Part shown: positions 2,563-42,450 of the stretch, in pieces
Position numbering within the stretch: position 1 is the stretch's first letter
Layout of the letters: the number at the start of each line of letters is the position of its first letter
NCBI GenBank assembly: GCA_965262725.1
Contig: OZ253555.1
Span: forward strand, 2,368,001-2,432,000
Direction: 5' to 3'
From: Dehalococcoidia bacterium
Lineage (GTDB): Bacteria > Chloroflexota > Dehalococcoidia > UBA2979
Length of the DNA: 64,000 bases
Position numbers and translations under genes: made by a program
Notes under the pieces: generated by a model
What the model saw: only the letters and a program-made list of their open reading frames with translations
Database searches by the model: none
Told to the model about the DNA's origin: nothing

Positions 2563-2586
2563 CTCAGTTATCCGAGGCGTCGCCCC
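2519..2586. repeat. 16-bp direct repeat TCCGAGGCGTCGCCCC
   Basis: Exact copies at 2519-2534 and 2571-2586, straddling the 3' end of the S8 gene. Confidence 0.85.
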
Positions 2587-12272: not shown

Positions 12273-12417
12273 GGGTTGTTCGACCAGACCTGTCGCCAGT
12301 GCGCGACCGGGAAGGCCGCGAAGGGCGGGACCTCTGGCGCAGCGTCGCCGAGCACCGCCGCGGCCTCGGGGATGCGCGCCGGAGGCAGCCGGGGCGGGCG
12401 ACATGCCCGCGGAAGCC

Positions 12418-21626: not shown

Positions 21627-21720
21627 CTCAGGGTCAGCCGCGCGGAGGGAGAGCGCAGCACGCACTCCTCGTGGGCGGTCCGTCCTGGCGTCACTGGCTG
21701 GACCGCCTGCGGCGAGAGCG

Positions 21721-24700: not shown

Positions 24701-27700
24701 TGCATGGCGTGCGAGAAGCTCACCTTGACGGACGGGTGGTCGTCGTCCGCGATTGCTACCGTGGTCTCGGCCGGACTGGCCTTGCTCACCCGAAGATCCG
24801 TGATCGTCCCAAACTCTATCTTGACGCTCTCGTCGTCATCATCGACGTCGTCGCCCGCTGCGGTGAGTTCAAACGTCTTCGATGTCTCGCCCGGACCAAA
24901 GGTCACGTCGTCCGGGATCGTGTAGTCGGCCGGGTCAGTGGGGTCGGGCGGGTCCGCCGGGTCAGTGGCGCCGTCCTGGCCGGACGCAGTCAACGGGACC
25001 TCGACCGTCCGCTCCGGGTCAGCGCTCAGCAACACCTTCACTGTGACCTTGTGCTCTTTCACGTCCGGGGTGTCTGGATCGTCGCTCTCGGCGACCGTGT
25101 ACGAGTCCTTTTCGAAGCTGACCATGACCATGGGAACGTCGTCGTCGGTGATATTGACGGTCGTCTCGGCGATGGTCCCCGCTGTGACGCCGGTAGGCAG
25201 CGTGTCGAAGCCGATGACCACGCTCTCGTCGTCATCGTCCACATCGTCCGAGTCCACGGTGAAGGCGAAGGTCTCTGAGGTCTGGCCGACGATGAAACTC
25301 ACGCTTGCCGGGAAGTCCGAGTAGTCGTCCCCGGTCGCGCCATCCTGGCCGCTCGAGGTCAGCGGAATGCTGACCATGCGCTCCGGGTCCTTGTTCAACG
25401 TCACGGTGATGGCGACAGTGGCGCCTTCGGCCGCTGTGTAGGTGGCAAGTTCGAAGTCGGCGACGACATCAACGATGTTATCGATGATGGTTACCGTCGC
25501 CTCGCTCGGGGTGCCGGCGGTCACGCCGGCCGGCAGCGAGGACCCGAAGCCGATCGTCACGCTCTCGCCGTCGTCACTGACGTTGTCGTTCGCCGCGGTG
25601 AACGTGATTCCCTTCGATGTGTCGGTAGCACTGAACGTGACGCTCTGGTCCACCAGGGTGTAGTCGGCAGCCGTGGCGCGGTCTGGAGTCGCGGTCAAGG
25701 GGATGGTGACCTGGCGCTGCGGCGCCGGGCTGACCAAGACCGTGACGGTGATGTCCCCGCCTTCGGGGGCGTCGTAGGTCGATGGGTCGAACTTGACCGT
25801 CACATTGGGGACATCGTCATCGGTGATGCTGACGACGGTCTCGGGTGTGTCGCCCGCGGTGATGCCCGTTGGCAAAGATGAACTGAATGCGATCTTGACG
25901 CTCTCACCCTCGTCGTCCGTGCTGTCGTGCTCTGCCGTGAACGTGAACGTCTTCTCCATGTCATTGGCTTCGAATGTGACGCTCATGGGGGTCGAGTAGT
26001 CGGTGCTGCCGGCGGTGTCGCTTGTGATCGTGAACGGAATCGTCACCTGGCGTTCGGGCGCAGCGCTCAGCTTCACCTTGACCGCGACCTCGTTCTCTTT
26101 CACCGGCGTGGTCGTATCGTCGCTCTCGGCGACCGTGTACGAGTCGCGTTCGAAGTTCACCTTGATGGACGGGAAGTCGTCGTCGGTGATGGAGACCGTG
26201 GCTACATTTGTGGTGCCCTCCGTCACGCCGTCGGGCAGGTTGTCAGTGTCGAAGCCGAGTGTGACGCTTTCGCCGTCGTCGTTGTCGGTATCGTGAGTGG
26301 CCTTGAACGTAATCGTCTTCTCGGTATCACCACTCGCGAAGGACACAGTCATCGGCACGCCCGAGTAGTCGCCGCTGCCGATGTTGGCCTCCGACCTGGA
26401 GATCGGGATCACCACCGTGCGCTCCGGAGCCGCGCTCAGCTTCACCTTGACCGCGACCTCGTTCTCTTTCACCGGCGTGGTCGTATCGTCGCTCTCGGCG
26501 ACCGTGTACGAGTCTTCTTCGAAGCTGACCGTCACCGCGGGAACGTCGTCGTCGGTGATCGAGACCGTTGACTGGCTGTAGGTTCCCAGCGAAACGCTGT
26601 CGGGCAGCGGGAGCGGCCCGAAGCCGAGCAGCAGCGACTCTCCATCGTCGTTTTCGGTGTCCTCCGTCGCAATGAAGCTGATGATCTTCTCGGTCTCACC
26701 ACTCGCGAAGGACACAGTCATCGGCACGCCCGAGTAGTCGCCGCTGCCGATGTTGGCCTCCGACCTGGAGATCGGGATCACCACCGTGCGCTCCGGGTCC
26801 GCGCTGAGCTTCACCTTGACATCGACGCTCTCACCCTCGTCGACAACGTACGTCGCATGTTCAAAGCTGACCATGACCGCGGGAACGTCAGTGTCGTCAA
26901 TGGTGACAATGGTAATGAAATGATCTCCCAAGCCGACTCTGTTCGGCAGTCCCAGGTCGGGCTCAAGCTCGACGAACTCACCGTCGTCGTTAAATGAGTC
27001 ATTGGCCGCGGTGAACCTGACGGTGGCCAGCGTTGCAGTCGCAGCGAACTCCACCACGACCGGGTCGACGGTATAGTCGTCGATTGTGGCAGTGGTCTCG
27101 GCGGTTGATTGCAGTGTGATCGTGATCAGGCGCTCTGGCGGGGCGGTCAATTCCATCATGAGATCTATATAATCGCCCTCAGACACCGAATACGTACCCT
27201 CTTTGAAGCCCACCTTGAGCACCGGATTGTCGTTATCCTCGATGCTGACCGTGGTGGTCGCGTACGTAGTGCCTGCCCCTACCCCCGCCGGCAGCGTTCC
27301 GAACTCGATCAATACCCACTCATCGTCGTCGTCCACATCGTCATTATTCGGAGTGAAGATGACCGTCTTCGCTGTTGCACCCGCCTCGAAGGTGACGCTG
27401 GTGTCGGACAAGCTGTAGTCCGCCACGGTTGCTCCGCCCTTACCGGTCGCCATGAGCGGGATGGTGACCGGGCTGCCCAGGGCCGGGCTCAGCGTGACGG
27501 TGACCGTGACCTCGGTCTCATTCAGCGGCGTGTTCGGGTTGTCTCTCTCTCCGCCCTCGTAAGTGGCGGCGCCGAAGTTCACCGTGGCAGCGACGTCGGC
27601 AATGCTCACTGCGGTCTCGAACGTGGTGCCGACCGCATAGCCGGGTGGCAACGCGCCGAGTTCGATCTTCACGCTTTCGCCGGTATCTCTCACCGAGTCC

Positions 27701-30700
27701 AGCCTGGCGCTGAACACGATCATCCCCGATGTGTCGCCCGCATCGACGGTGACGCTTGTGGGCACGTCGTAGTCGGCGGTGGTCGCGCCATCCTGCCCCG
27801 TGACCGTCAGCGGAATCACAACCGAGGTGCTCGGCGCCGCGTCCAGGGTGACCGTGATCGATACGGTGCCGCCCTCGTCGACGCTATAGGTGGACTGCCC
27901 GAGGTTCACCGCCACCAGCTGCGTCGCTTCGACGTCGTTGATAGTGATGACTGTTTCGTCCGGGCTGCCCTTGACCAGGCCGGCTGTCAACATATTCATA
28001 CTGAACGTGACGGTCTCGCCGTCGTCGGTCTCGGAATCAGTTCTGGCCCGGAACTGAAACGTCCTGGCGACTTCCCCGGCGGCGAAGATGACATTGCTCG
28101 GCACGCTCCCAAAGTCCGCCGCCGTCGCGCCGCTTACGGTTGCAAGCAGATCGACGCTGACCTGTTGCCCAGGGTCACCGCCGAGCTCGACCGACACTTC
28201 CACCATCTCGCCTTCGTCGACGGTGTAGGTGGCTGATCCAAAGCTAACTTCGAGGTTGCGGGTGGCGAGGACCGAGTAATACTGCGTCGTTGTGCCGTCT
28301 TCGGCCGTGACGGTGATGCCAATCTCGGACTCACCGGTCCAGGCGGCCTCTGTTGCCACGCCCGACATGGTGTCCGGCCCGTGGGTGTTCGACATCGTCG
28401 CGCCGCTAAAGCTCGTCATCCCGGTCAGCGTGACGCTTGTCGCCGCGGCGCCGATCGTGGCCGTGTAACTGGTCGTGGCCGAGTCGAACGCGGGCGACAG
28501 CGTGATGGCGCCGTTGTTGTCGACGAAGGCCAGGGCGCCCAATGTCGCGTCGGTTGAGGCGGCCTTGTCGACGTGAATCTTGTAGATCTTGGTCCGGCTC
28601 CCATCGGGCGAGGTGACCATGAACTTGACCAGGTTGTCGCCCGGGACGAGTGGCCAGACAGCGTCGTATGCCGCGGTGTTCGTGTCCTCGTGGCCGCCGA
28701 CGTAGAGGATGCTGTCCACGGTTCCGCTGGTGCTCGGCGTCACGACTCCGGTGAGGGAGTCGATCTCGCTGTCCGCGGTTGCGGTGTAGAGGAAGCTGTA
28801 CTTGTCGAAGGTTGGAGTGAGGGCGACCGCGTTTCCGTCGGAACCGGTCAGCGTGATCGAGCTCAGCGTGCCGTCGGTCTGGGTCGTCTGGTCGTTGTTG
28901 ATAATCAGACCGGACGCGGCAGTGACGAAGCCCAGTTGCGCGTTCTCGGATGGACTGCTGAGTTCAACATTGAAGGTCTCGTCGTCCTCGTCGACAGAGT
29001 CGGCCGTGGTGGTGATAGTGACGGTCTTCTCGGTCTCGTTGGCGGCGAAGGTCAGTGTCGCGGCGGATACGCCGGTGTAGTCGGAGTCGGCGGTGGTGGC
29101 GCTGTCGTCGGCCGTGCTGTATTCGACCGTGACTGCTTCACCCAGCGCCGAGCTGAGGCTGACCGTGAACTGGACGCCCGAGCCCTCGACCGCCTGCGAT
29201 CCGGTGATCGACAAGTGAGGCTTGCCGGCTTCCAGCGGCGAATTGAGCACCATCACCAGCGCCGCTGTCAGCCCATTGGTTGATTGGCAGCCTTCATTTG
29301 GCAGAGCGGCGGAGTGGATGACACGACAGCGGTCGGCGATGCTCCAGCCCTCGTCGCTCGACGGATCTTCGTCGTCATCCTTCGTATGAAGCAGACCCAC
29401 TTCTCCCTGGACTGATTCGACGTACACGAGATAGGTCGTGTTGGCGGCCAATGTGATCGTTTCACCGGCCGGCGCGGTGAAGGTGACGGCGCCCACTCCC
29501 GTGCCGAGGCTCGAGAAGTCGGGCCGCGTCAACGTATGCAGCCTGGCGCCGGGATCGACTCCACTCGCCGAGTAGATGTGAACGTCTGCCTGGGCATTGT
29601 TGGTTCGCTTTTGGAATGACGGAAGTGTGACGCTGCCCAGGACGGCGGGCTCGGAACCAGTGGTGAATGCTTGAGTGCGTGCCTTGAATTGGCTGCGCCC
29701 GAGTGAACCGATCAACAGCCGTTCGGTCCCCGGAATCAATTGCGTGGCATTGCCGACCAGCACCGTATTGTTGGCGGTGGGCGCGCTGATGGGTGTTGCG
29801 TAGGCGTGGCTCTCGCTTGTGGGTTCCTTGTTGGACTGGCCGGCTCCGTTGTACGCCACTACCTGGACGTTGTATTCCACGCCGCCGGTCAGCCCGGTGA
29901 TGGTATGAATCCGGGTCTTCCCACCGACGACCACGTCGCGGCGCCCGGCCGAGCCATCAAGGTCATGGACCTCCGCGCCCGACTTCCACATCACGTGATA
30001 GCCGTCGGCAGCGGCGACTTCACCCCAGCGGGCCTTGATCGATTCGACTTCTTCTTCAGCGGTCACGTCTCTTGTGAGCGCGGGGTCCTTCATTGTGAGG
30101 ACGATCTCGGCGATCCTGTTGTCACTGAATTTGCCGGTGTTGCGCAAGCTCGCGATCGTGCCTTGCGGCGAAGTCGCGGTGGTGCTGCTCTCGAATTCCG
30201 TGCCGTCCAGGGTGCCGGCATCGAACGGGAACAGTTCAATGGAGATTCTGTTATTTGCGTCTAATGTGGGCCAGGTTCCACCTTGATGTAGATCGTATGC
30301 GCTGACGCCGGCGAACCAGTCCGAGGACGGATTGATCTTGACGAGGATCGTGACGCAACTGAACTCTTCCTCTATGGCGAGGTCCGGCCCCCCCTTGCCT
30401 GTGGTAGGTCCGTTTGGCGGGTTTATCGTCCAGAAGTCCTGCGCATTGCCTGCCGCGACCGCCGCGTCCAGTTCTGCCTCGAAGGCAGCGGTAGAGCCCG
30501 TCTCAGCCAACGCCTGAACACCAGCGCTGGCCGTGCCAGCTACGCTGAAGAATGACACGTCGCACTTGTGAGCCACGATGATCGTATCGCCGAATCCGGC
30601 GTCGGACGGGCGCGTGACGCCCGTAGCGAGGGCCGCCACGTTGAACTTGCCAATGACTCGTGCTTTGAACTTTCGCAGCTCCGACGGGCTGGCGGCGTCC

Positions 30701-30810
30701 GCCATGCCGGCAGTGCCCGCCAGCACGGCGAGGACCGCGAGCACGGTCGCCACCAGGAGGACCGGGAAGCACCACCGGGAGCAGACCCGCGCCAGCGTTC
30801 GACTGCTCAT
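21721..30810 (-). CDS. Giant exported adhesin (~3029 aa): signal, spondin_N-like domain, FN3, beta-sandwich domain, Calx-beta, 2 cadherin-like domains, long Calx-beta-like array, shared C-terminal module
   Basis: ATG at 30810 with GGGGAG RBS and a hydrophobic leader ending ADA. Spondin motif INPSSDWFAGV...LFPFDAGT. About 15 repeats of VxFxxxxYxVxEG...DDxDDDxESVxIxF...ITDDD. Confidence 0.9.
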   Translation of the reverse strand: MSSRTLARVCSRWCFPVLLVATVLAVLAVLAGTAGMADAASPSELRKFKARVIGKFNVAALATGVTRPSDAGFGDTIIVAHKCDVSFFSVAGTASAGVQALAETGSTAAFEAELDAAVAAGNAQDFWTINPPNGPTTGKGGPDLAIEEEFSCVTILVKINPSSDWFAGVSAYDLHQGGTWPTLDANNRISIELFPFDAGTLDGTEFESSTTATSPQGTIASLRNTGKFSDNRIAEIVLTMKDPALTRDVTAEEEVESIKARWGEVAAADGYHVMWKSGAEVHDLDGSAGRRDVVVGGKTRIHTITGLTGGVEYNVQVVAYNGAGQSNKEPTSESHAYATPISAPTANNTVLVGNATQLIPGTERLLIGSLGRSQFKARTQAFTTGSEPAVLGSVTLPSFQKRTNNAQADVHIYSASGVDPGARLHTLTRPDFSSLGTGVGAVTFTAPAGETITLAANTTYLVYVESVQGEVGLLHTKDDDEDPSSDEGWSIADRCRVIHSAALPNEGCQSTNGLTAALVMVLNSPLEAGKPHLSITGSQAVEGSGVQFTVSLSSALGEAVTVEYSTADDSATTADSDYTGVSAATLTFAANETEKTVTITTTADSVDEDDETFNVELSSPSENAQLGFVTAASGLIINNDQTTQTDGTLSSITLTGSDGNAVALTPTFDKYSFLYTATADSEIDSLTGVVTPSTSGTVDSILYVGGHEDTNTAAYDAVWPLVPGDNLVKFMVTSPDGSRTKIYKIHVDKAASTDATLGALAFVDNNGAITLSPAFDSATTSYTATIGAAATSVTLTGMTSFSGATMSNTHGPDTMSGVATEAAWTGESEIGITVTAEDGTTTQYYSVLATRNLEVSFGSATYTVDEGEMVEVSVELGGDPGQQVSVDLLATVSGATAADFGSVPSNVIFAAGEVARTFQFRARTDSETDDGETVTFSMNMLTAGLVKGSPDETVITINDVEATQLVAVNLGQSTYSVDEGGTVSITVTLDAAPSTSVVIPLTVTGQDGATTADYDVPTSVTVDAGDTSGMIVFSARLDSVRDTGESVKIELGALPPGYAVGTTFETAVSIADVAATVNFGAATYEGGERDNPNTPLNETEVTVTVTLSPALGSPVTIPLMATGKGGATVADYSLSDTSVTFEAGATAKTVIFTPNNDDVDDDDEWVLIEFGTLPAGVGAGTTYATTTVSIEDNDNPVLKVGFKEGTYSVSEGDYIDLMMELTAPPERLITITLQSTAETTATIDDYTVDPVVVEFAATATLATVRFTAANDSFNDDGEFVELEPDLGLPNRVGLGDHFITIVTIDDTDVPAVMVSFEHATYVVDEGESVDVKVKLSADPERTVVIPISRSEANIGSGDYSGVPMTVSFASGETEKIISFIATEDTENDDGESLLLGFGPLPLPDSVSLGTYSQSTVSITDDDVPAVTVSFEEDSYTVAESDDTTTPVKENEVAVKVKLSAAPERTVVIPISRSEANIGSGDYSGVPMTVSFASGDTEKTITFKATHDTDNDDGESVTLGFDTDNLPDGVTEGTTNVATVSITDDDFPSIKVNFERDSYTVAESDDTTTPVKENEVAVKVKLSAAPERQVTIPFTITSDTAGSTDYSTPMSVTFEANDMEKTFTFTAEHDSTDDEGESVKIAFSSSLPTGITAGDTPETVVSITDDDVPNVTVKFDPSTYDAPEGGDITVTVLVSPAPQRQVTIPLTATPDRATAADYTLVDQSVTFSATDTSKGITFTAANDNVSDDGESVTIGFGSSLPAGVTAGTPSEATVTIIDNIVDVVADFELATYTAAEGATVAITVTLNKDPERMVSIPLTSSGQDGATGDDYSDFPASVSFIVGQTSETFAFTVDSDDVDDDDESVVIGFDTLPTGVTAGTIAETTVNITDDDVPMVMVSFEKDSYTVAESDDPDTPDVKEHKVTVKVLLSADPERTVEVPLTASGQDGATDPADPPDPTDPADYTIPDDVTFGPGETSKTFELTAAGDDVDDDDESVKIEFGTITDLRVSKASPAETTVAIADDDHPSVKVSFSHAMHTVAEGAAVDLTVSLDVDPERELIIQLVPKFDGGATDADYTGVPTSVTLSTDKRSETITFMTVDDSEDDDDDQVTIGFGTMPDDRVSAGDVPSTEISITDDDDPQVTVKFGAATYIVPEGGSASVTVHLSAAPERTVTIPLTETPMNGISDGDYDGVPTNVAFAVDQTEAMFTVTAPADEEDDDDESVEIRFGELPDGVTAPDPSTGDPSTTTVAIVDGNVPDVMVKIEAASETVAEGESVIVTVTLDQAPERAVTVPLTITPVGTYSADDVDEPLPTSVEFPENQRSKSFTINAKDDDIDDDDEGLTIGLGTLPSRVSAGSPSEATIGITDNDDPEVTVGFEQAEYTVPEGMSQAIQINLSADPEREVTIALEFTTEADGATADDYSMDPDTDPLTLTFEPGGTEQSFTFTSTQDTDDDDGEIVTITFNGSLPHRVTGGSPDEAVVTIKPRPAIGTGGGGGGGPTGPAPSIIDFEWNVARDIEALEPGNDRPTGMWSYGNMLYIADNGDGADDAVYVYDLATGERVEEREFALDTANRAPRGFWSDDVTVWVSDSGQNRLFAHDLATGDRLRARDLVLAERNRDARGIWSDGKTMWVLDDGKNSLFAYDLGSGDLLAEYALDASNGDPHGIWSDGVGVWVSDDGAKRLIAYRLPTLPDDEQASNEENKELERVSDEDFKELSGARNNSPRGIWSDGDVMYVADASDGKVYSYNIPDPIDARLASLTLGGVDIGEFSSNQTEYEGVAADGVTETTVEAEAVQPAATVAIEPPDSDEAADGRQAAVAGGTEITITVTSADESRTKIYRVRFGDAAGVPSTAACLRGAVSVGFSLLVYAGGSVEELVACAQSRHATALYTLNDGGYVPYIFGAPDFVNSSFGELFAGGVPATTPLIIKSEGPPSPAPASDAVPEFGADCLRGEIASGFSLLLYEGGSVEDLDSCAQGTNVSAVYALIDGEYVPYILGAPEFVNEAFRELFPEGIAPATPLIAKSD
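26063..26796. repeat. Recent intragenic duplication with 369-bp period
   Basis: 26063-26145 equals 26432-26514 (83 bp), and 26327-26427 equals 26696-26796 (101 bp). Confidence 0.85.
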
Positions 30811-31374
30811 GCATGCTCCCCGACGGTGCTCACAGCGCGCAATCCACCCCGGGGCCGCGAGGGCTGCTCCGGCCAGAACGGCGTTATCAACGTCGCGATT
30901 CTCAGCAGCGGCGAGGTGCAACCCAATCGATATCCATGACGCGGTGTTCTTCGCAGTTGGCCGCTCACGCCCTCTCTTCGAGAGCACTCACGGTTCTGGC
31001 GGCCCGAGCGTCCGAGGCGACTCGCACACGACGGAGCGGCTCGACCGAACCTGGTGGGTGGCTGAGCCGGTGCGAATCCGCATCGGATCGGCCCTAATCG
31101 TACGGCTATGAGGGATAGCGTCAATCCGGCGTACTATCATTTCGCAGCGTACTGTGAGGTCGGCTTTCACGGACTCGAACCGTGGGCCTACCGCTCACCG
31201 GCCGACTGAGCGAGCGCTCCGAGTCACGGCGCGGCATGGGAGGCGGCGCGCCGCTTACCCGAGGGCGTCCCACAGTTGCGATAGGCGAGGCATCAGGGGT
31301 GAGGCTCCGTTCGGCAGGCGCATCACCGGCGGCGATCCCCTGGCGTCCGCAGCGCAGGGGAGTGGGAAGAACCC

Positions 31375-31562
31375 TCCGACGAGGACAGAGCACTCGGGCG
31401 CGTCGCTGATGAGGATTTCAAGGAGCTGAGCGGCGCAGCAACAACAGCCCGCGCGGCATCCGGTCCGATGGCGACATGATGTACGTCGCCGACCAGAGCG
31501 ACGGCTGGGTCTACACGTACAACATGCCCGACACCATCGACGCGCGATGGCGATCCCTCGCC
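31375..31562 (+). pseudogene. Orphan frameshifted fragment of the shared module (last blade)
   Basis: DEDRALGRVADEDFKELSG / NNSPRGIRSDGDMMYVADQSDGWVYTYNMPDTIDAR. Confidence 0.8.
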
Positions 31563-31922: not shown

Positions 31923-34900
31923 ATGGGCGTGGCTCGCGCATCGCTGTGGCTGCTGGCCCTGGTCGCGCTCTCGGCTGCCCTGCTCACCCTCCAACCCCGG
32001 TCGGCCGCCTTCGCCGCTCACTGCTCGGGGACCAGCTACCACCCGGATCCGACGACCGTCACGGTGGATGCCGTGCCCATCGTGGCCGAGTCGACCACCG
32101 ACGGGTACTTCGCGCTCTACGTGAAGCACGACGTGGACGGCACGGAGGTGGAGCTGCCGGTCTTGGTCAAGCGGGGCGAAGCCGGCACGACCACACTCGC
32201 CGAGAACGTGGAGGCGCTGCCCGCCGAGCGCTACCGCGTGGAGAAGTACCTCATCGCCGATCCGGCCGACGTCGACGGTGACTGCATCGACGACATCACC
32301 GAACTTGCCGATCCGGTCGGGATGAACCCGGTGAACCCTGCCCCCGCCGTCGCACTCAACGACGGTGCCGTGGTCATTTCCGATCGGGACACGTTCGAGG
32401 CGTTGGCCGTTTCCTCGCGCCTGAAATTCATTGCGTTCGACGTAGCAACCGACCGACCGGTTCTCTATTTCCTGAACACCAAGACTCACGACAACCACAT
32501 CAGCTTCCTGGATGCTGTAGGTTTGGATTTTGATCTTGACGCGTACCGGGGGGACATCTCCTATGACCCCACACAGGTTGCCTCTGATGGCAGTCTCGGA
32601 GCCTACTACTACAACAGCACCCTAAATAAGAGCTATCCTCTCAACGTCGAAACGCGTCTCTATACAATACTGGCCGCCAGCCTGCCACTGATCGAGAAGA
32701 ATATCTCTCTCTATATACCCAACCAGAAGCTTCCGACGACTCGGCACGTCGTGCCATTGTTGAGGGAATCCCGTATTCCGCTTCTGTTCACCGAAGACGT
32801 CATTCCCGGAGGGAATTTTCTTGCCTTGAACCCGGGTGAAGGATACGGGCGACTGCAGGTCCTGAACCCGGACGACCGGCCCCACCCGCGCGACGTGGTG
32901 ATCTACGAGGCGCTTCCCAACGAACTGCCCCGCGTCGCCGGCATCATCTCCACAGTGCCCCAAACCCCGTTGTCGCACGTCAACCTGCGCGCCATCCAGG
33001 ACGGCGTGCCCAACGCCTTTGTCCGGGACGCGCTCGACGAGCCCGGCATCGACGGCCTCATAGGCAGCTACGTCCGCTACGTGGTGACCGACAGTGGCTG
33101 GGATCTGCGTGCGGCCACGCTTGCGGAGGTGGAGGCCCACTACGAGGAGTCACGGCCCGCCCACACCCAGACCCCGGAACGCGACCTCGCCGTCACTGAG
33201 ATCACGCCCTTGAGTGAGATTGGCTTCGGCGGCTCGGATGCCTTCGGCGTCAAGGCGGCCAACGTTGCCGTCCTTGGGAAGCGCGGTCTTCCCGAGGGGA
33301 CGGTCCCGGACGGCTTCGCCATCCCGTTTTACTTTTATGACGAGTTCATGAAGCACAACAACTTCTACGAACGCATCGAAACCATGCTCGCCGACCCCGA
33401 CTTCCAGTCGGACTTCGACGTCCAGGACGACATGCTCGACGATCTGCGCGAAGACATCGAGGGCGCGGACACGCCCCAGTGGATACTCGCGGCACTGGCG
33501 ACGATGAACGAGGGGTTCCCCGCGGGCATCAACCGTCGCTACCGCTCCAGCACCAACAACGAGGACCTGCCGGGGTTCAACGGCGCGGGACTGTACGACT
33601 CCAAGTCCCAGAAGCCGGATGAAGACGAGGACGACGGCCTCGACAAGTCGCTCAAAGAGGTCTACGCGAGCCTCTGGAACTTCCGCGCCTTCACCGAGCG
33701 CGAGTTCCACCGCATCGATCATCTGGCGGCCGCGATGGGGATCCTTGTGCACCCCAGCTACCAGGACGAACTGGCCAACGGCGTCGCCGTCACCTTTGAC
33801 CCTCTGTCAGTCAACTACGACAGATATTATGTGAATACGCAGCTTGGCGAGGATCTGGTGACCAATCCCGAGGCCCACTCGACGCCCGAGGAGCTCCTGC
33901 TACGAAAATCCGGTTCCCTCTACGTCGTCCTGGCCACCTCCAACCTGTTGGACCCGGGGGAGCTCCTGATGAGCTACACGCAGCTGCGCCGGTTGCGCGA
34001 TCACCTCACCGTGATCCACGACGACTTCCACGGGCTGTACAACCCCGGCCCCGGCGACCCGTTCGCCATGGAGATCGAGTTCAAGATCACCAGCGAGGGT
34101 GTCCTGGCGATCAAGCAGGCCCGGCCCTGGGTCTTCGGCGGCGCCTCCACGGTGGTGAAGCCTCCCGTCACGCCGGTGTCGGTCGGCTTCGGGGCCAGCA
34201 GCTACACCGTGGCGGAGGGCGAGAGCGTGCCGGTGGTCGTCTCGCTGAGCGCCGATCCCGAACGCACCCTGACGATCCCGCTCACCCCGAGGGAGCAGGG
34301 CGGCGCCTCCAGCGCCGATCACTCGGGTATCCCGGCGAGCGTGACGTTCGTGAGCGGTGTGACGTCGCGCATGGTCGATGTCAGCGCAGCAGCGGATGGC
34401 GAGGCGGACGCCGGCGAGAGTGTGTGGATCGGCTTTGGCGCCCTGCCGGCAGGCGTCACGGTTGGCGGCAGGCCCACGACCACAATCGCCATCACGGACA
34501 GTGGCGCCCCCCCTGTCGAGCCCCCCGTGACGGTGATTCTCGGGGGAGGTGGCGGCGGTGGCGGACCGTCCGGACCAACGCCGAGCGACGTCGACTTCGA
34601 GTGGAACGTCACCCGCGACATCGAGGAGCTCGACGGCGACCACGGTTCGCCCACCGGCGCCTGGTCCGACGACACGACGCTCTGGCTCGCCGAGAACGCC
34701 GACGGCGCCGACGACGCCGTCTACGCCTACGACCTCGCCACGGGCGAACGCGTCGAGGAGCTCGAGTTCGAGCTCGACGACGCCAACCTCGCGCCTCGTG
34801 GGGTCTGGTCCGACCTCCGCACCATCTGGATCTCCGACAGCGGCAAGGACAAGCTCTTCGCACACGACCTGGGTAGCGGCGAGCGCCTCCCCGACTCCGA

Positions 34901-36152
34901 CCTCGCACTGCACCCCGACAACGACGACCCGCGCGGCATCTGGTCCGACGGCTCGACGATGTGGGTGCTCGATGGCCGCGACGACGCCCTCTTCGGCTAC
35001 GACCTCGTAAGCGGCGAGCTGCTCGCGGGGTACGCCCTGCACGACGACAACGGCGACCCGCACGGCATCTGGTCCGACGGCGTCAGCGCCTGGGTCTCCG
35101 ATGACGGCGCCAGGCGCCTCTTCGCCTACCGTCTGCCCTCGATCGCTCAGGAAGAGGCGGGCGAGGACGAGGACCTCGCGCTCGAACGTGTGCGCGACGA
35201 GGAGTTCTGGAAGCTCCCCCGCGTCAGCAACAACAGCCCGCGCGGTCTCTGGTCGGATGGCGACGTCATGTACGTCGCCGACGAGAACGACGACAAGGTC
35301 TACAGCTACAACATGCCCGACGCGATCGACGCGCGGCTCGCCTCGCTCACCCTGAGCGATGTGGAGATCGGCAAGTTCTCAGGCAGCCGGGCGGAGTATG
35401 CGGGAGTCGCCGCGGACGGTGCGACGGCGACGACGGTCGAGGCGGAGGGGAGGCAGTCCGGCGCGACGGTCGTGGTGGGGCCCCCCGACAGCGACGGGGG
35501 CACCGACGGCCACCAGGCAACCGTGGACGCCGGCTCGGAGATCACGGTGACCGTGACCTCCCCCGACGAGAGCCGCATGCGCGTCTACCGCGTGCGCATC
35601 GGCGGCGCGGCGGAGCAACTGGCAGCGCCCGCCTGCCTGAGCGGGAGCATCGACGTCGGCTTCAGCCTCGTCATCTCCGCGGCCGGCAGCGTCGGGGACC
35701 TCGTCTCCTGCGCGCAGGGCCGCGACGCCACCGCCGTCTACGCGCTGCACGACGGCGGATACGTGCCCTACATCCTCGGTGCGCCCGAGTTCGTGAACCG
35801 GTCCTTCCGCGAACTCTACGCCGACGGCCTCCCCTCCTTCACGCCGCTGATTGCGAAGAGCGAGGGGCCGCCCTCGCCCGCGCCTGCGAGTGACGGCGTG
35901 CCGGAGTTCGGGCCGGAGTGCCTGCGCGGCGAGATCGCCGTCGGCTTCAGCCTCGTGCTCTACGGGGGCGGCACCGTCGACGAGCTGAAGACGTGCGTGG
36001 AGAGCCGCGACGCCACCGCCGTCTACGCGCTGCACGACGGCGGATACGTGCCCTACATCCTCGGTGCGCCTGAGTTCGTGAACCGCGGCTTCAGGGAGTT
36101 GTTCCTCGAGGGCCTCGCCCCGGTCACCCCGCTGATCGCCAAGCGCGACTGA
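31923..36152 (+). CDS. Exported PEP/pyruvate-binding (PPDK_N, ATP-grasp) dikinase-like protein with Calx-beta and the shared C-terminal module
   Basis: GGAGG RBS; signal peptide ending AFA. His motif QTPLSHVNLRA. ATP-grasp motifs FGVKAAN, VPDGFAIP, RSSTNNEDLPGFNGAGLYDS, MEIEFK...KQARP. Confidence 0.88.
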   Translation: MGVARASLWLLALVALSAALLTLQPRSAAFAAHCSGTSYHPDPTTVTVDAVPIVAESTTDGYFALYVKHDVDGTEVELPVLVKRGEAGTTTLAENVEALPAERYRVEKYLIADPADVDGDCIDDITELADPVGMNPVNPAPAVALNDGAVVISDRDTFEALAVSSRLKFIAFDVATDRPVLYFLNTKTHDNHISFLDAVGLDFDLDAYRGDISYDPTQVASDGSLGAYYYNSTLNKSYPLNVETRLYTILAASLPLIEKNISLYIPNQKLPTTRHVVPLLRESRIPLLFTEDVIPGGNFLALNPGEGYGRLQVLNPDDRPHPRDVVIYEALPNELPRVAGIISTVPQTPLSHVNLRAIQDGVPNAFVRDALDEPGIDGLIGSYVRYVVTDSGWDLRAATLAEVEAHYEESRPAHTQTPERDLAVTEITPLSEIGFGGSDAFGVKAANVAVLGKRGLPEGTVPDGFAIPFYFYDEFMKHNNFYERIETMLADPDFQSDFDVQDDMLDDLREDIEGADTPQWILAALATMNEGFPAGINRRYRSSTNNEDLPGFNGAGLYDSKSQKPDEDEDDGLDKSLKEVYASLWNFRAFTEREFHRIDHLAAAMGILVHPSYQDELANGVAVTFDPLSVNYDRYYVNTQLGEDLVTNPEAHSTPEELLLRKSGSLYVVLATSNLLDPGELLMSYTQLRRLRDHLTVIHDDFHGLYNPGPGDPFAMEIEFKITSEGVLAIKQARPWVFGGASTVVKPPVTPVSVGFGASSYTVAEGESVPVVVSLSADPERTLTIPLTPREQGGASSADHSGIPASVTFVSGVTSRMVDVSAAADGEADAGESVWIGFGALPAGVTVGGRPTTTIAITDSGAPPVEPPVTVILGGGGGGGGPSGPTPSDVDFEWNVTRDIEELDGDHGSPTGAWSDDTTLWLAENADGADDAVYAYDLATGERVEELEFELDDANLAPRGVWSDLRTIWISDSGKDKLFAHDLGSGERLPDSDLALHPDNDDPRGIWSDGSTMWVLDGRDDALFGYDLVSGELLAGYALHDDNGDPHGIWSDGVSAWVSDDGARRLFAYRLPSIAQEEAGEDEDLALERVRDEEFWKLPRVSNNSPRGLWSDGDVMYVADENDDKVYSYNMPDAIDARLASLTLSDVEIGKFSGSRAEYAGVAADGATATTVEAEGRQSGATVVVGPPDSDGGTDGHQATVDAGSEITVTVTSPDESRMRVYRVRIGGAAEQLAAPACLSGSIDVGFSLVISAAGSVGDLVSCAQGRDATAVYALHDGGYVPYILGAPEFVNRSFRELYADGLPSFTPLIAKSEGPPSPAPASDGVPEFGPECLRGEIAVGFSLVLYGGGTVDELKTCVESRDATAVYALHDGGYVPYILGAPEFVNRGFRELFLEGLAPVTPLIAKRD

Positions 36153-37668
36153 CGCCCTCGCCGCACACGGTCCAGCCCGTGACATCAGGGCGCACTGCCT
36201 GCGAGGAATGCGCCCTGCGCTCTGCCTTCGCGCGGCCGGCAGGGGCGACGCTCACCACCACTCCTGCCTGGCGAGTCACACTGATGGAAGACCGTCGTGA
36301 GACGGGTTGTCATTCCCATAGTGCGGGGATTCCGCGAGTAGACCGTCTGGCCACCGGCGCGACGAATGTCAGCGTCGCCTCTCCCGCGCCTAGCGGGGGA
36401 CCGCCGCCTCTCGCCGACTTGCCAAGTGGCGTATCGACTGATCTTCGACCAATTCGACCGAGATCTGGTGGTCGCTATTGTATAGACCGAGTTCGATCAC
36501 TGGCTCAGGAGCTGCTTCCGCAACGGCCGAGGGGGAGGCCGCTGTCTACGGCGCCCCCGCGCTCACGCCGTCGCTCTTCACGATCAGGGGCGCGGCGGCG
36601 GGGAGCCCGTCTGTGAACAGCTCGCGGAAGGACCGATTCACGAAGTCCGGGGCACCGAGGATGTAGGGGACGTAGCCGCCTTCATCGAGGGCGTAGATGG
36701 CCGTGATGTTGCGGCTCTCCGCGCAGGTCGTTAGTTCCTCGATCGCACCGCCCTGGTAGAGGACGAGGCTGAAGCCCGTGGCGACCTCGCCACGCAGGCA
36801 CTCCGCCCCGAACTCCGGCACGTCGTCACCCGCCGGCGCGGCGGACGGAGGCCCCTCGCTCCTGGCGATCAGCGGCGTGAATGGGGGGAGATCGTCGGTG
36901 TAGAGCTCGCGGAAGGACCGGTTCACGAACTCGGGCGCGCCGACGATGTAGGGCATGTACACCCCGTCGCTCAGGGCATAGAGGGCCGTGACGTGGCGGC
37001 TCTGCGCGCAGGAGACGACGTCATCGACGCTGCCTGCCGCGGAGATGAGGAGGCTGAAGCCGACGGCGATGCTCCCGCTCAGGCAGGGCGCCGCCGACCG
37101 CTCTGCCTCGGCCGTGTCGCCGATGCGCACGCGGTAGACGCGCATGCGGCTCTCGTCGGGGGAGGTCACGGTCACCGTGATCTCCGAGCCGGCGTCCACG
37201 GTTGCCTGGTGGCCGTCGGTGCCCCCGTCGCTGTCGGGGGGCCCCACCACGACCGTCGCGCCGGACTGCCTCCCCTCCGCCTCGACCGTCGTCGCCGTCG
37301 CACCGTCCGCGGCGACTCCCGCATACTCCGCCCGGCTGCCTGAGAACTTGCCGATCTCCACATCGCTCAGGGTGAGCGAGGCGAGCCGCGCGTCGATCGC
37401 GTCGGGCATGTTGTAGCTGTAGACCTTGTCGTCGTTCTCGTCGGCGACGTACATGACGTCGCCATCCGACCAGAGACCGCGCGGGCTGTTGTTGCTGACG
37501 CGGGGGAGCTTCCAGAACTCCTCGTCGCGCACACGTTCGAGCGCGAGGTCCTCGTCCTCGCCCGCCTCTTCCTGAGCGATCGAGGGCAGACGGTAGGCGA
37601 AGAGGCGCCTGGCGCCGTCATCGGAGACCCAGGCGCTGACGCCGTCGGACCAGATGCCGTGCGGGTCG
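35054..37668. repeat. Large inverted repeat formed by the convergent 3' modules of two genes
   Basis: 35054-35604 is the reverse complement of 37118-37668 with no mismatch seen (the shadow ORFs translate identically). High similarity continues outward. Confidence 0.9.
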
Positions 37669-38040
37669 TCGTTGTCATCGTGCAGGGCGTACCCCGCGAG
37701 CAGCTCGCCGCTTACGAGGTCGTAGCCGAAGAGGGCGTTGTCGCGGCCATCGAGGACCCACATTTTCGCGCCGTCGGACCAGATGCCGCGCGGGTCGTCG
37801 TTGTCGGGGTGCAGTGCGAGATCGGAGTCGGGGAGGCGCTCGCCGCTACCCAGGTCGTGTGCGAAGAGCTTGTCCTTGCCGCTGTCGGAGATCCAGATGG
37901 TGCGGAGGTTGGACCAGACCCCGCGAGGCGCGAGGTTGGCGTCGTCGAGCTCGAACTCGAGCTCCTCGACGCGGTCGCCCGTGGCGAGGTCGTAGGCGTA
38001 GACGGCGTCGTCGGCGCCTGGGCCGTTCTCGGCGAGCTAG

Positions 38041-39248
38041 GGGTTCTCTGAACAGGTCGCCGCGTCGTTACTGGAGCACATGCACACTCCGATGACTATA
38101 TGCGATCATGGCACTCCTCCGGGAAAGGGGAGCGCTGCCATGCATCAGCCGACATTCGCGAGAGTCGAGTTCGAGCGGGATGGCTACAAGACGCGCCGCC
38201 AGAAGTTCCTCGAACGGCTGGATGGCCTCGTCCCGTGGCAGAGGTTCGAAGCAGCCATCGAGCCCCACTACCCGAAACCGGGCCGCGGGCGGAGGCCCTA
38301 CCCGCTCTCCGTGATGCTGCGCATCCATACCGTGCAACTCTGCTACAACCTCAGCGACCCCGGCATGGAGGATCTGCTCCACGAGGCCGAGTCGGTGCGA
38401 GCCTTTTGCTTCCTCACGCTCTCCGAGCCCATCCCCGACGAGACGACGATCCTCAACTTCCGGCACCTGCTCGAGCGCCACTCCCTGGGTAGCAGGATCC
38501 TCCAACTCATCAACGAGCACCTCACGAGCAAGGGATTGAAGCTGAGCGAGGGCAGCATCGTGGATGCGACCATCATCTCGGCGCCATCGTCGACGAAGAA
38601 TCGCGGGCGGGCGCGGGACCCGGAGATGCATCAGACCAAGAAGGGGAAACAGTGGTTCTTCGGGATGAAGCTGCACATCGGCGCCGACAGGGATACTGGA
38701 CTGGTCCACAACTTCACGACCACGCCTGCGAACGTGTCGGACGTGTCTGAGACGCACCGCCTGCTGCACGGCGAGGAAGCCGAGGTCTACGGCGACGCCG
38801 GGTACCGGGGCGTGCAGAAGAGACCCGAGAACGCGGACTCCAGGGTCAAGGACTGGAACGTGGCGATGCGCCCGGGCCTCCGGCGTGCGCTCGACCCGGA
38901 GAGTCCTGAGGCCGTCGAGGAGAAGCGGAAGGCATCGGTGCGAGCGCTGGTGGAGCACCCGTTCTACAGCGTGAAGCGGCGCTTCGGCTACGCCAAGGTG
39001 CGGTACCGGGGTCTCTTCAAGAACCACGAGCGGTGTGCGGTCTTGCTGGGGTTCCACAACCTGCTCACCGCGAAGCCGCACCGTGCCTGACCGTGGGTGG
39101 AGTGCGCCCTCCCCGCCCCACACGGGGCGAGGAGGGGAGCCACAGGGGCCCGCGAGGGGGCGGATATGACCACTGTCATCGGGAATCCGCCTGAGAGCGC
39201 CTGACCGCGGCGAAACTGGGTCGCTAGACCCACCTGATCAGACTTGCC
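38041..39248 (+). mobile_element. Complete IS5-family element (1208 bp)
   Basis: IRs GGGTTCTCTGAACAGGT / GGCAAGTCTGATCAGGT (12 of 17 match). CTAG duplicated at 38037-38040 and 39249-39252. Confidence 0.92.
38140..39090 (+). CDS. IS5-family transposase
   Basis: PDETTILNFRHLLE, IVDATII, RDPEMHQTKKGKQWFFGMKLHIG, GDAGY, RALVEHPF, KVRYRGL. Confidence 0.95.
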   Translation: MHQPTFARVEFERDGYKTRRQKFLERLDGLVPWQRFEAAIEPHYPKPGRGRRPYPLSVMLRIHTVQLCYNLSDPGMEDLLHEAESVRAFCFLTLSEPIPDETTILNFRHLLERHSLGSRILQLINEHLTSKGLKLSEGSIVDATIISAPSSTKNRGRARDPEMHQTKKGKQWFFGMKLHIGADRDTGLVHNFTTTPANVSDVSETHRLLHGEEAEVYGDAGYRGVQKRPENADSRVKDWNVAMRPGLRRALDPESPEAVEEKRKASVRALVEHPFYSVKRRFGYAKVRYRGLFKNHERCAVLLGFHNLLTAKPHRA

Positions 39249-39809
39249 CTAGAGGGTCGTGTCGTCGGACCAGAGGCCGGTGGGCGAACCGTGGCCGCTG
39301 GCGAGCTCGTCGATGTCGCGGGTGCCGTTCCACTCGAAGTCGACGTCGCTAGGGGACCGGCTGGAGGGCGCGCCGCCGCCGCCGCCGCCGCCGAGAATCA
39401 CCGTCACCGGGGGGTCGACAGGGGGGTCGGCACTACGATCCCTGATGGCGACTGTGGTCGCGGGCGTACCGCCAACCGTGACGCCTGTCGGCAGGGCGCC
39501 AAAGCCGATCCACACACTCTCGCCGCCGTCGTCATCGGTGTCCTCGGTCGCGCTGAAGACAAAGGTCTTCGAGGTCTCGCCGCTTGCGAACGTGATGCTC
39601 GTGGGCACGGGCTCGTAGTCGGCGGACGACGCTCCGTTCTGGTTGGCCGTCGTCAGCGGGATCGTCACCGAGCGCTCTGGGTCCGCGCTCAGCGAAACAG
39701 TGACCGCTACCGTGTCGCCCTCCGTGGCGGTGTACATGGCCGAGCCGAAGCTCGCCGTCACCTGGGGGTCGTCATCGTCCGTGCCGCTCACCCACCGCAC
39801 CCCCCCGGG

Positions 39810-41552
39810 CGACCCCGGCCAGCAAGCGACAGCCCCTTCGGTCCTGATGGCGCACCCGTTATGGGATCTGACGGCAAGGGCGGCGAAGGTTCCCGCGGGC
39901 GTGTCGGTTTGACCTATACCGTTGTTCCCCCAGCAGGCGATGGTGTTGTCGCTCCTGATGGCGCAACTGTGAAGGGTTCCGAGCAAGAGGGCGATGAAGC
40001 TGCCGGTGGGTGCGTCGGACCGCCCGTGGTCGTTGAGTCCCCAGCAGGCAACGGTGTCGTCGGCCCGGATGGCACACGTGTGATCTTCACCAACGGCAAC
40101 TGCCTCGTAGGCGCCGGCGGGCGCATCAGCCTGCCCGTCGTCGTTGAGTCCCCAGCAGGCAAGGGAGCCGTCGGTCTTGATGGCGCACGCGTGATCGTCG
40201 CCAACGGCAAGTGTTTTGTAGCTGCCGGAGGGCGCATTGGTCTGCCCGTCCTGGTTGCGGCCCCAGCAATCGATGGTGTCGTCGGTCTTGATGGCGCACG
40301 TGTAGAAGTTGCTGGAGGCGAGGGCTTTGTAGGCGCCGCTGGGCGGGTTGGTCAGACCATGGTGCCCGTCTCCCCAGCAGGCGATGGTGCCGTCGGTCTT
40401 GATGGCGCAGGTGTGGAGGTCGCCGGGGGCGAGGGCTTTGTAGGCGCCTGCGGGCGCAGCGGTCTGCCCCTGCTCGTCGTATCCCCAGCAGGCAATGGTG
40501 TCGTCCGTGGCGATGGCGCACGTGTGATCGAAGCCAGCCGTGAGGGACTTGTATGCGCCCGCGGGGGCGTCCGTCTCGCCGACATCGTTGTGCCCCCAAC
40601 AGGCGATGGTGTCATCGCCGGCGATCGCACACGTGTGATCGTCGCCGGCATCAATGGCCCGGTAACTGCCGGCGAGTTCGCCGTTCAACGCAAAGGGGCT
40701 TCTCCCCCAGCAGTCGACCGTTCCGTCAGTTGCGACCGCGCAGGTGAGCTCAAGACTGAGGGACAGGGCCTGGTAGGTGCCCGCCGGTGCGTCGGTTTCC
40801 CCGTTGCCGCCGCGTCCCCAGCAAGCGACGGTGTCGTCCGTTCGGATAGCGCAGTATCGATGGGAGCCAGCGGCGATGGCTTTGAACGTGCCCGCCGGGG
40901 CATCTGTCTGCCCCGATGTGTTTTGCCCCCAGCAGGCGATCGTGTCATCGGTGGCGATAGCGCAGGTGTGATAGTGCCCGGCGACAACGGTCTTGTAGGT
41001 GCCTGCCGGAGCCCTTCTCTGACCCTTGTCGTTCCATCCCCAGCAATCGATGGTGTCGTCCGTTGCGATGGCGCAATTGTGAACCTCCCCAGCCACCAGC
41101 GCCTTGTAGACGCCGTTCGGCGGGTTCACCAACCCCCTGTCGGGGTAGCCCCAGCAGGCGATGGTCCCGTCGGTCCTGAGGCCGCAGGTGTGCTCCCAGC
41201 CGATGGTGAGGGCTTTGAAGGCACCCGTCGGCGCCTGGGTCTGCCCGAACGCGTTGTACCCCCAACAGTCGATGGAGTCGTCAGTCGCAATGGCGCACGC
41301 GTGACGATCTCCCGCGGTAACGCTCCGGTACGTGCCGGCCGGCGAGTTCAACTGCTCGATGTCGTTGCTTCCCCAGCAGGCAATGGTGTCGTCCGTGGCG
41401 ATGGCGCACGTGAAACGGCCACCCAGGGCGATTGATTCGTAGGCACCCGCCAGCGGCCTGCTCATTCCGCTGTCGTTGCTGCCCCAGCAACTGATGGTGC
41501 CGTCGGTGGCGAGGGCACACGTGTGCCAGATGCCGGCGCTCACGGTCGTGTA
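39810..41552 (-). repeat. 16 tandem 111-bp (37-aa) RCC1-like repeats
   Basis: Consensus YKALxAGxxHTCAIxTDDTIACWGxNxxGQTDAPAG. Confidence 0.9.
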
Positions 41553-41799
41553 GGTTCGGCCCTCGTCGGCGGCAGCGACAGACGGCCGGGTGGCAGCGCT
41601 GCCTAACCCGAGTAACACCACCGCAGCGAGGAGCAGCGTTACGGCGCGACGAGCGCCGAGGGTCCGTCTGGAGGAGGATATCCTGGCGCTCGTTTCACAG
41701 TGGTTCACCACCTGCTCGGTGTTCATGCAGTCCGCGGGTCTCGTGACCACCTCGGGAGCCGCGTCCGCCACGGCTGAGGGTGACCCCTCCACCTGCGGG

Positions 41800-42450
41800 G
41801 AGGGGTCACGCCCGCCGCGCTCACGCCGTCGCTCTTCACGATCAGGGGCGCGATGGCGGGGAGGCCGTCTGTGAACAACGCGCGGAAGGACCGATTCACG
41901 AAGTCGGGGGCACCGAGGATGTAGGCGACGTAGCCGCCTTCGTCGAGCGCGTAGATGGCCGTGATGTTGCGGCTCTGCGCGCAGGTCACGAGTTCCTCGA
42001 TCGCACCGCCCTGGTAGAGGACGAGGCTGAAGCCCGTGGCGCCCGTGCCGCGCAGGCACTCCGGTCAGGGCGGAGGCCGTCTGTGCTGCCGTCGGCGTCG
42101 GTGAGGGGGTTGTCGCTGCCGTCGAGGAACTCGAGCGTGGCGTTCGCATCGTTCCTCGTGGGCGACACGGTGATCTGCGTGACCGTGTCGCCCACGGCAG
42201 CCGCGTAGGACGTGATGCCGCTGGCGAAGGGCGGATCCAGCCGTCCCTCGCTCAGCTCAAGGCCGCTCAGCGTGGCGTCGGTGCTCGGCGGGGTCTGGGC
42301 GGCGACGGGCGAGGCCAGCGCCCCAAGCAGGCCGAGCAACGCCACCAGGGCACAGGCACTCAGCCGGGGCGGCGCCCAGCGAGGAGAGGGTGCACACCTG
42401 GCACCGGCCTGCCCACCGGCCAACTGCGAGCATCGAGGACGATTCTGCAC
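41800..42450 (-). pseudogene. Internally deleted fifth family member: signal peptide and cadherin-like domain joined out of frame to the last terminal repeat
   Basis: ALVALLGLLGALASPVAAQ, STDATLSGLELS...FASGITSY, then PECLRG..GFSLVLYQGGAIEEL...YILGAPDFVNRSF, nearly identical to 36555-36785. Confidence 0.8.

Follow-up and report, generated by a model that had tools for sequence, protein, structure and literature searches.

The gene P0001 lies in a 64,000-nucleotide stretch of DNA from a Dehalococcoidia bacterium (contig OZ253555.1, positions 2,368,001 to 2,432,000; hereafter the window; GC content 62–74% in 2-kb steps), and the first 741 residues of its product would form a secreted or surface-displayed 'head' of the phosphoenolpyruvate (PEP)-utilizing dikinase kind with reversed domain order. 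By analogy with known dikinases, we consider it probable that this head is an exported ATP-dependent dikinase that passes phosphate to a separate acceptor. From its N-terminus it would comprise a leader, a β-sandwich, a calcium-type acidic loop, a variable α/β domain, a swivelling phosphohistidine (His) domain and an ATP-grasp domain (Table 1). The initial annotation of the gene took in positions 31923–34145, which encode residues 1–741 of an open reading frame (ORF) of 1409 residues. Of the four elements that it described, the signal peptide, the His motif and the complete ATP-grasp domain after the motif are borne out by the present analysis and the anchor is not.

An AlphaFold2 model of residues 1–741, built from a 36-sequence alignment, has a mean pLDDT of 86.6 and a pTM of 0.78; a second model, of residues 40–435, has a pLDDT of 89.2. 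Residues 440–735 match the Pfam family PPDK_N with an E value of 1.6e-20 (74 bits against a cut-off of 27), and because the match covers profile positions 3–308 of 328 the ATP-grasp domain is complete. Foldseek matches it in the PDB to rifampin phosphotransferase (RPH; 5hv1, E = 1.4e-15), PEP synthase (PEPS; 2ols), HpeI (9goj) and PPDK (1kbl, E = 5e-7), which share the ATP-grasp fold, and the RSSxxxEDLP stretch of the conserved unit of the head (the module, delimited below) aligns with the PEPS and RPH chains. In an alignment of 72 modules from genome loci, Lys444, Arg541, Glu547 and Asp548 are present in every sequence, Glu717 and Glu719 in 71, and Gln732 and Arg734 in 66, the remaining six having gaps at cut ends. 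The individual residues would have the nucleotide- and Mg-site roles described for PPDK. The last 62 residues of the module gave just chance α-crystallin matches against the PDB, and phage records yielded a single weak match to the ATP-grasp domain.

In PPDK, PEPS and RPH, which are cytoplasmic enzymes, the His domain follows the ATP-grasp domain. The NCBIfam models of PEPS (53.3 bits against a cut-off of 598) and RPH (38.5 bits against a cut-off of 999) align with the window protein by their N-termini, at profile positions 7–240 of 798 and 6–218 of 864, respectively, and over the ATP-grasp stretch only, in agreement with the earlier statement that these two enzymes place ATP-grasp first. The Pfam and NCBIfam positions together establish that the order in the window protein, His motif and then ATP-grasp, is real and opposite to that of PEPS and RPH. 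These models are the best NCBIfam matches, and the Streptomyces relatives described below are cytoplasmic, as would be expected if the protein were an ordinary cytoplasmic enzyme of the PEPS or RPH type whose leader and domain order had been misread. We find this scarcely credible: the scores are far under the cut-offs with only the ATP-grasp domain aligned, the protein has neither a PEP/pyruvate domain nor a His domain after the ATP-grasp domain, and it has a leader, a cysteine pair and an extracellular-type domain context. Score, order and context already contradict such an enzyme.

The motif GIISTVPQTPLSHVNLRA is present exactly as annotated at nt 32940–32993 (residues 340–357), and according to the structure model and Foldseek it lies within a true swivelling phosphohistidine fold. 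With the model of residues 40–435 as query, the His domain of RPH (5hv2, 5fbu and 5fbt) superposes over 110–112 columns with an r.m.s.d. of 3.0–3.2, and further matches are AF_0055 (E = 8.4e-4), Enzyme I-Ntr and the isolated phosphoryl carrier domain of PPDK (2fm4, TMt 0.50). In the viral fold library BFVD, a phage 'PEP utilizing enzyme' was matched; other BFVD matches were weak. Pfam returned no family at E ≤ 10, PEP-utilizers included, for residues 1–440 or for residues 301–440, and the His domain is therefore recognizable by fold alone. A loosened form of the motif matches 253 of 267 stored proteins, 222 of which have exactly TPLSHVNLRA, and 14 have none, a recurrence among homologues that is far beyond chance. 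His352 is a histidine in all 72 modules, so the conservation on which the initial annotation depended holds. In the model, His352 begins a helix (residues 352–359); PMC13553574 likewise places the catalytic histidines of the glucan-water dikinase (GWD) GWD1, RPH and PPDK on a short exposed helix.

As modelled, the head has the features of the PEP-utilizing dikinase superfamily, namely an ATP-grasp domain, putative nucleotide/Mg-site residues and a swivelling His domain. Its chemistry is presumably, by analogy, that of RPH, PEPS and PPDK, in which ATP gives AMP, Pi and a phosphorylated acceptor, and its two folds also match those of RPH and PPDK; the TIM barrel of PEPS and PPDK and the rifampin-binding insert of RPH have no counterpart in the module. 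The dikinase fold might instead have been co-opted for adhesion through nucleotide or ligand binding, with no turnover, and indeed the module always occurs among adhesion-type domains and no partner genes were found near its loci. However, (near-)invariance of the histidine and the nucleotide/Mg residues over 72 modules from seven phyla would be hard to explain without catalysis, and no other domains of the module are as well conserved as the His and ATP-grasp domains (mean pairwise identities of 0.70 and 0.74); we regard a non-catalytic module as highly improbable.

The leader, which had been annotated as a signal peptide, consists of MGVAR, an 18-residue hydrophobic run and QPRSAAFA, with AFA at residues 29–31, and looks like a Sec signal peptide. 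Residues 1–11 and 17–29 have pLDDT values below 50 in the model. A hydrophobicity heuristic detected a leader-like stretch in 162 of 265 homologues that start with Met, and the leader of protein P0011 is almost identical to that of the window protein even though the P0011 module is just 68% identical. Cys34 (in 67 of the 72 modules) and Cys121 (in 71) are the sole conserved cysteines in about 700 residues, and in 64 modules the stretch from residue 47 to residue 737 is otherwise free of cysteine. A disulfide between the two is probable and would tie the acidic loop, DPADVDGDCIDDITE, in which Asp116, Asp118, Asp120, Asp124 and Glu127 are each present in 72 of 72 modules; by its motif, the loop is putatively of a calcium-binding type. 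Every one of 16 complete ORFs, drawn from seven phyla, combines PPDK_N with Pfam domains that are solely of extracellular type (LDL-receptor B, fn3, cadherin, PKD, Calx-beta, dockerin, NHL, DUF285 and similar ones), and neither PEP-utilizers nor the PEP/pyruvate TIM barrel (PEP-utilizers_C) occurs in any of these ORFs or in the window protein. From the leader, the cysteine pair, the DxDxDG loop and these companions we infer that the window protein is very probably exported.

Residues 44–298 of the model contain about 11 strands and six helices. Mean pairwise identity among the modules is 0.64 in the β-sandwich and 0.76 in the acidic loop and only 0.52 over residues 135–335, the most variable stretch of the module; because of this variability, we propose that the N-terminal domain may bind the acceptor. 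Conserved positions in and around the α/β domain are Lys168, Tyr182, Asn185, His192, Ser283, Arg284 and Asn303. Neither Pfam, PDB sequence profiles nor Foldseek searches of the PDB and BFVD gave a convincing relative for the elements that precede the His domain, and the matches of a family profile to PDB sequences were confined to the ATP-grasp domain. Three candidates for the α/β domain were rejected. A cofilin lead (E = 0.34–0.48 over profile positions ~146–229) and Foldseek matches to ADF, GMF and gelsolin (probability 0.18–0.41) are insignificant, and a match of the profile of residues 130–340 to multicystatin in the PDB (E = 5e-5) breaks up into three repeats with individual E values of 16–39 each and is a helix-plus-hairpin resemblance rather than homology. 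An Atlas search with residues 40–335 returned clusters from Bacteroidota and Verrucomicrobiota at 0.89–0.90, as leads only.

By analogy with PPDK, PEPS, RPH and GWD, the ATP-grasp domain would bind ATP-Mg, His352 would take the β-phosphate, the γ-phosphate would go to water, and AMP and Pi would be released. A swing of the His domain would next bring the phosphate to the variable N-terminal domain, for transfer to a hydroxyl of a bound acceptor or to water; candidate acceptors are a hydroxyl on a macromolecule of the host matrix or cell surface, or a small molecule. Several points weigh against an exported dikinase of this kind. Free ATP is scarce outside cells, which makes an exported ATP-driven enzyme energetically awkward. 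The leader test, which was a hydrophobicity heuristic, failed in 103 of the 265 Met-start homologues, although many of 40 inspected among these 103 are N-terminally truncated or have the hydrophobic run past residue 45. The N-terminal domain has no recognizable ligand site or known fold relative, and 79 flanking ORFs of 16 loci include no conserved neighbour hinting at a substrate (of 93 candidates, 14 were dropped: 11 that overlap the main ORF or lie antisense to it in L004, L020 and L055, together with L005:763–1383 and the last two in L032). Finally, the nearest named relatives, at 26% identity, are leaderless Streptomyces proteins whose genes adjoin those of an ATP-grasp ligase and an MFS transporter, which suggests that the ancestral family acted on small molecules in the cytoplasm.

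The same conserved catalytic machinery would also suit an enzyme that removes extracellular ATP, turning host ATP into AMP and two Pi with water as the final acceptor, the N-terminal domain only regulating or docking it. AMP is the direct product of a dikinase, and such an enzyme would blunt purinergic signalling of the animal host with no release of ADP. Several relatives belong to lineages that are described as sponge symbionts, and PMC11883242 reports that in the sponge Ephydatia muelleri ATP and ADP in the bath alter canal contraction, that AMP does not, and that P2X-like receptor genes are present. Against this, simple apyrases or nucleotidases would be cheaper, the conserved yet fast-diverging pre-His domain of about 165 residues suggests a real acceptor, and the habitat of the organism in the window is itself only inferred. 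We judge ATP removal as such to be unlikely and prefer transfer of phosphate to a separate acceptor.

The module is a widespread and self-contained unit. HMMER found 4071 matches at E ≤ 1e-3 among 1.84 billion cluster representatives (2517 at E ≤ 1e-10 and 1227 at E ≤ 1e-30). The best 150 of these matches nearly always run from query residues ~24–56 to ~738–741, and homologue matches start at ~24–56 wherever in the protein the module lies: at the N-terminus, at residues 1008–1722 of 1726, or at residues 1808–2535 of 3210, with module starts ranging from residue 1 to about 2100 in carrier proteins of 816 to more than 4500 residues. Because the match ends are constant and the position in the subject is variable, the conserved unit is a cassette of about 710 residues, corresponding to residues 34–740 of the window protein. 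The 120 relatives listed by a word-indexed search are 63–87% identical, and all combine PF01326 with variable adhesion-type domains. In a genome scan, at least 611 pattern matches were found, at least 590 of which encode relatives; the best 80 gave 76 loci with module identities of 55–84% across seven phyla, the closest among these best 80 of at least 590 being an 84% identical module on a Dehalococcoidia metagenome-assembled genome (MAG) chromosome (L011). By record titles, the 76 loci belong to Chloroflexota (52, of which 50 are Dehalococcoidia), Acidobacteriota (eight), Latescibacterota (six), Actinomycetota (six; Acidimicrobiia including Candidatus Poriferisodalis and Candidatus Aldehydirespirator), Thermodesulfobacteriota (two), Binatota (one) and the archaeal phylum Nitrososphaerota (one, a Cenarchaeum sp. 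MAG). In five loci (L001, L031, L043, L045 and L066), a stop codon interrupts the reading frame of the module before codon 650; these loci were left out of the alignment and tree and may be pseudogenes or frameshift errors of (long-read) assembly.

A FastTree phylogeny of the 72 intact modules implies 17 changes of phylum against a minimum of six. Modules from different phyla appear as close sisters (Binatia L008 with Latescibacterota L009, 0.09 each; Tepidiformaceae L017 with Latescibacterota L021; Actinomycetota L023 with Dehalococcoidia L026), and the archaeal copy is nested within bacterial ones. Many of the loci lie on multi-Mb contigs or in records labelled 'chromosome', which argues against binning errors. 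Transfer of the module between phyla is thus likely, but not proven for each case, since the tree is a quick one and paralogy also splits groups. We envisage a mobile cassette that would have been exchanged among phyla and fused to lineage-specific adhesion-type tails. In several genomes the module is present two or three times, in some cases in adjacent genes (L058:794–3349, L007:1088–5245); contigs with multiple copies are OZ240239.1, OZ241962.1, OZ240219.1, OZ244809.1 and CBDDEI010000002.1.

Genes commonly found next to the module encode transposases (IS110 and DDE), further giant proteins of adhesin-like type, an SRCR protein or an animal-type haem peroxidase, and a second copy of the module may also lie there. 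An animal haem peroxidase (E = 2e-153) and an SRCR domain are encoded near the module at L017:10181–12841 and L058:10121–11083, LDL-receptor class B repeats (18 and six stretches) are fused upstream of the module in the main ORFs of L002 and L009, and the Cenarchaeum module protein (main ORF of L061) has DUF285 repeats. Such surroundings would be in line with an effector whose site of action is the interior of host cells or phagosomes. Host cells would take up the giant adhesin-like protein, and its head would use cytosolic ATP to phosphorylate a host molecule, for instance to stop digestion of the symbiont: this would solve the problem of ATP supply, LDL-receptor B, cadherin and fn3 domains are fused to the module, and sponge-symbiont papers tie such proteins to host interaction (PMC11706023 and PMC7848895). 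We nonetheless think it very unlikely; no translocation domain, secretion-system signal or C-terminal placement of the toxin type was found, the position of the module in its carriers is arbitrary, and the carriers have very different envelopes, including that of an archaeon, so that no common delivery machine is evident.

Eukaryote-like domains in the vicinity and the names of the lineages hint at a link to sponge habitats. According to PMC11706023, the families Poriferisodalaceae and Aldehydirespiratoraceae include lineages that live in symbiosis with sponges and in which cadherin, LRR, fn3 and Calx-beta proteins are enriched, and PMC7848895 describes Cenarchaeum symbiosum as a sponge symbiont. 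The Pfam table of the latter lists two or three PF01326 proteins in all 11 sponge-associated Thaumarchaeota genomes and two or three in most free-living ones (none in one, six in another), so there is no enrichment in the sponge-associated genomes; these counts say little about the module because Pfam cannot separate it from PPDK. In the papers on sponge-symbiont genomics that were consulted, the main texts do not mention dikinase, PPDK or PF01326, and a supplement of PMC11706023 has no PF01326 entry. A literature search found nothing on an exported dikinase or on the module, bioRxiv supplements, which could hold earlier mentions, being outside its reach. Going beyond the exported dikinase as such, the module could be a symbiosis factor that has spread horizontally among unrelated microbes of sponge tissue, in which a surface dikinase would draw on the extracellular ATP of the host and either silence purinergic signals, by turning ATP directly into AMP, or covalently phosphorylate host matrix or surfaces. 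The fast-diverging N-terminal domain would then track the host target. We rate this extension as rather unlikely on present evidence.

The closest named relatives are Streptomyces proteins labelled 'PEP/pyruvate-binding domain-containing protein', which have the same reversed order and a likewise uncharacterized function. A tblastn search of plasmid records identified one of these, P0268 (670 residues; NZ_CP109451.1, locus L077 7872–9884), which carries TPLSHTNVLA in its His domain followed by a C-terminal ATP-grasp domain. BLASTP aligns it with the window module at 26% identity over residues 182–738 (E = 3e-35), and hhalign aligns the Streptomyces family with residues 274–737 at a probability of 99.9% (E = 5e-33). 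Over the first ~180–270 residues, homology is not demonstrable. P0268 starts with MTTTTLPADTPAPG, with no hydrophobic run and no leader, in contrast to the leader and 670-residue tail of the window protein, and it stands alone, with neither the cysteine pair, the DxDxDG loop nor adhesion-type fusions. Its gene belongs to an apparent three-gene operon (L077 6511–11191) that encodes an ATP-grasp ligase, the dikinase homologue and an MFS transporter, with genes for an APH-family phosphotransferase, a NUDIX protein and an ABC transporter upstream; the unit looks like a small-molecule pathway. There are more than 1100 relatives of the Streptomyces type, with generic names or the name 'phosphoenolpyruvate synthase'. 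Because this widespread cytoplasmic family is clearly homologous and has the same order, the reversed order is an older bacterial invention, of which the window module would be an exported offshoot with a different N-terminal part.

The initial annotation had likened the protein to GWD. The L-S-H-V-x-x-R-A sequence of the module appears to resemble the GWD motif. As described in PMC13553574, GWD1 consists of two CBM45 domains, a 444-residue all-helical central domain (20 helices), a His domain of ~110–120 residues with three helices and seven strands, and an ATP-binding domain that resembles those of RPH and PPDK; the substrate of GWD is the starch of plants and algae. The order attributed to GWD, His domain before nucleotide domain, is thus correct, and GWD1 and the window protein are alike in the order and folds of their last two domains and in having an acceptor-side part first. 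However, the CBM45 domains and the helical central domain have no counterpart in the β-rich and α/β pre-His region of about 265 residues in the window protein, and GWD is a plant and algal enzyme whereas the window protein is prokaryotic and predicted to be exported. Residues 1–440 gave no CBM45 or CBM20 match with Pfam at E ≤ 10 (in a copy unchecked for a CBM45 model) or with Foldseek. Compared through the published description of GWD rather than its sequence, the window protein has no specific kinship with GWD and is not one itself: it matches GWD in domain order only, and that order is not special to GWD since the Streptomyces family has it too.

Table 1. Features of the P0001 gene in the window (positions in the window; residues in the encoded protein).
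Feature	Position	Strand	Basis or remarks
Whole gene P0001	31923..36152	+	Single intact ORF, ATG start, 1409 residues, multi-domain
Signal-peptide-like leader, residues 1–31	31923..32015	+	Sequence reading
Module start (Cys34) and N-terminal β-sandwich, residues 34–112	32022..32258	+	Strands at 44–110 in the model
Acidic DxDxDGxC..DD..E loop, residues 113–134	32259..32324	+	Conservation, Cys121
α/β domain, residues 135–298, putative acceptor-binding	32325..32816	+	Block-mean pLDDT mostly 71–95
Swivelling phosphohistidine domain, residues 299–410	32817..33152	+	Foldseek
His352 codon, presumed phospho-acceptor	32976..32978	+	Invariance and model
ATP-grasp nucleotide-binding domain, residues 436–737	33228..34133	+	Pfam PPDK_N, Foldseek
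Calx-beta-like domain, residues 751–843	34173..34451	+	Pfam, below gathering score
C-terminal tail	34542..36149	+	WSDG-type repeats, cadherin-like β-sandwich, two Cys-containing repeats
Tandem Cys-containing repeats	35627–35863, 35912–36148	+	~95 residues each, two cysteines each

Beyond the module, the Calx-beta match has an E value of 7.2e-4 in the whole protein and 1.1e-5 in a fragment, both below the gathering score, and the cadherin-like match (residues 1139–1226) is weak and under the Pfam cut-off. The annotated stalk and anchor, which would lie beyond residue 741, are not confirmed. Residues 860–1409 matched no family and no anchor in the PDB, Pfam or Atlas, and neither a transmembrane segment nor a sorting motif nor a known wall-binding family is present in the protein; as the tail is without a known family or recognizable anchor, the annotated anchor is unverified. 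The two Cys-containing repeats at the end of the tail are 80% identical at the nucleotide level, match no Pfam, PDB or Atlas family and could be a lineage-specific surface-attachment or sorting element.

The ~1.6-kb tail occurs four times in the window (2607–4216, 21706–23340, 34542–36164 and 36570–38040) and also at other Chloroflexota loci. Synteny of the window gene with Dehalococcoidia locus L011 is partial (86% identity at the nucleotide level in the module, 79% in an upstream giant gene and 85–86% in a two-component pair), and the orthologue there does not have the tail found in the window. On the reverse strand of the window are encoded a 2754-residue subtilase (S8) of giant, exported type with fn3, cadherin and P-domain (2564–10828), a 3088-residue exported-type protein with Spondin_N and ten Calx-beta domains (21721–30987) and a 966-residue exported-type protein with RCC1 repeats and Calx-beta (39249–42149). 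The subtilase and the Spondin_N protein end in the ~1.6-kb tail of the dikinase gene, which would thus be common to several giant exported proteins of this Dehalococcoidia-like genome. A 934-nt inverted repeat (34682–35615 and 37107–38040) is 98% complementary. The ORF at 36546–37763 on the reverse strand is a second, truncated copy of the tail, tail-to-tail with the dikinase gene, and this copy ends beside a DDE transposase gene (38080–39090); the inverted repeat suggests a recent duplication or gene conversion at a paralogue disrupted by an insertion sequence. An ORF on the forward strand that joins an integrase core (rve) match to a cadherin-like piece of the tail (12003–13100) and, immediately upstream of the dikinase gene, a 111-nt vestige of the tail (31436–31546, 86% identical to 35225–35335) look like debris of recombination among tail-bearing genes. 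Elsewhere in the window, 61055–63427 on the reverse strand encodes a 790-residue hybrid regulator with GAF, PAS, HisKA, HATPase and receiver domains and a Trans_reg_C DNA-binding domain.

To our knowledge, all known dikinases of this kind (PPDK, PEPS, RPH, GWD and phenylphosphate synthase) are intracellular. An exported one poses the questions of its ATP source and of its target outside the cell. The large conserved family in seven phyla and both prokaryotic domains, the fusions to adhesion-type and eukaryote-like domains and the multiple copies suggest strong selection in a shared habitat. If the module does act as a symbiosis factor, it would be an extracellular phosphohistidine dikinase and a new mechanism of host manipulation. 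The finding also draws attention to an unstudied family of reversed-order dikinases in Streptomyces, and the module itself is a concrete, assayable candidate for host–microbe chemistry in symbioses of the sponge type.

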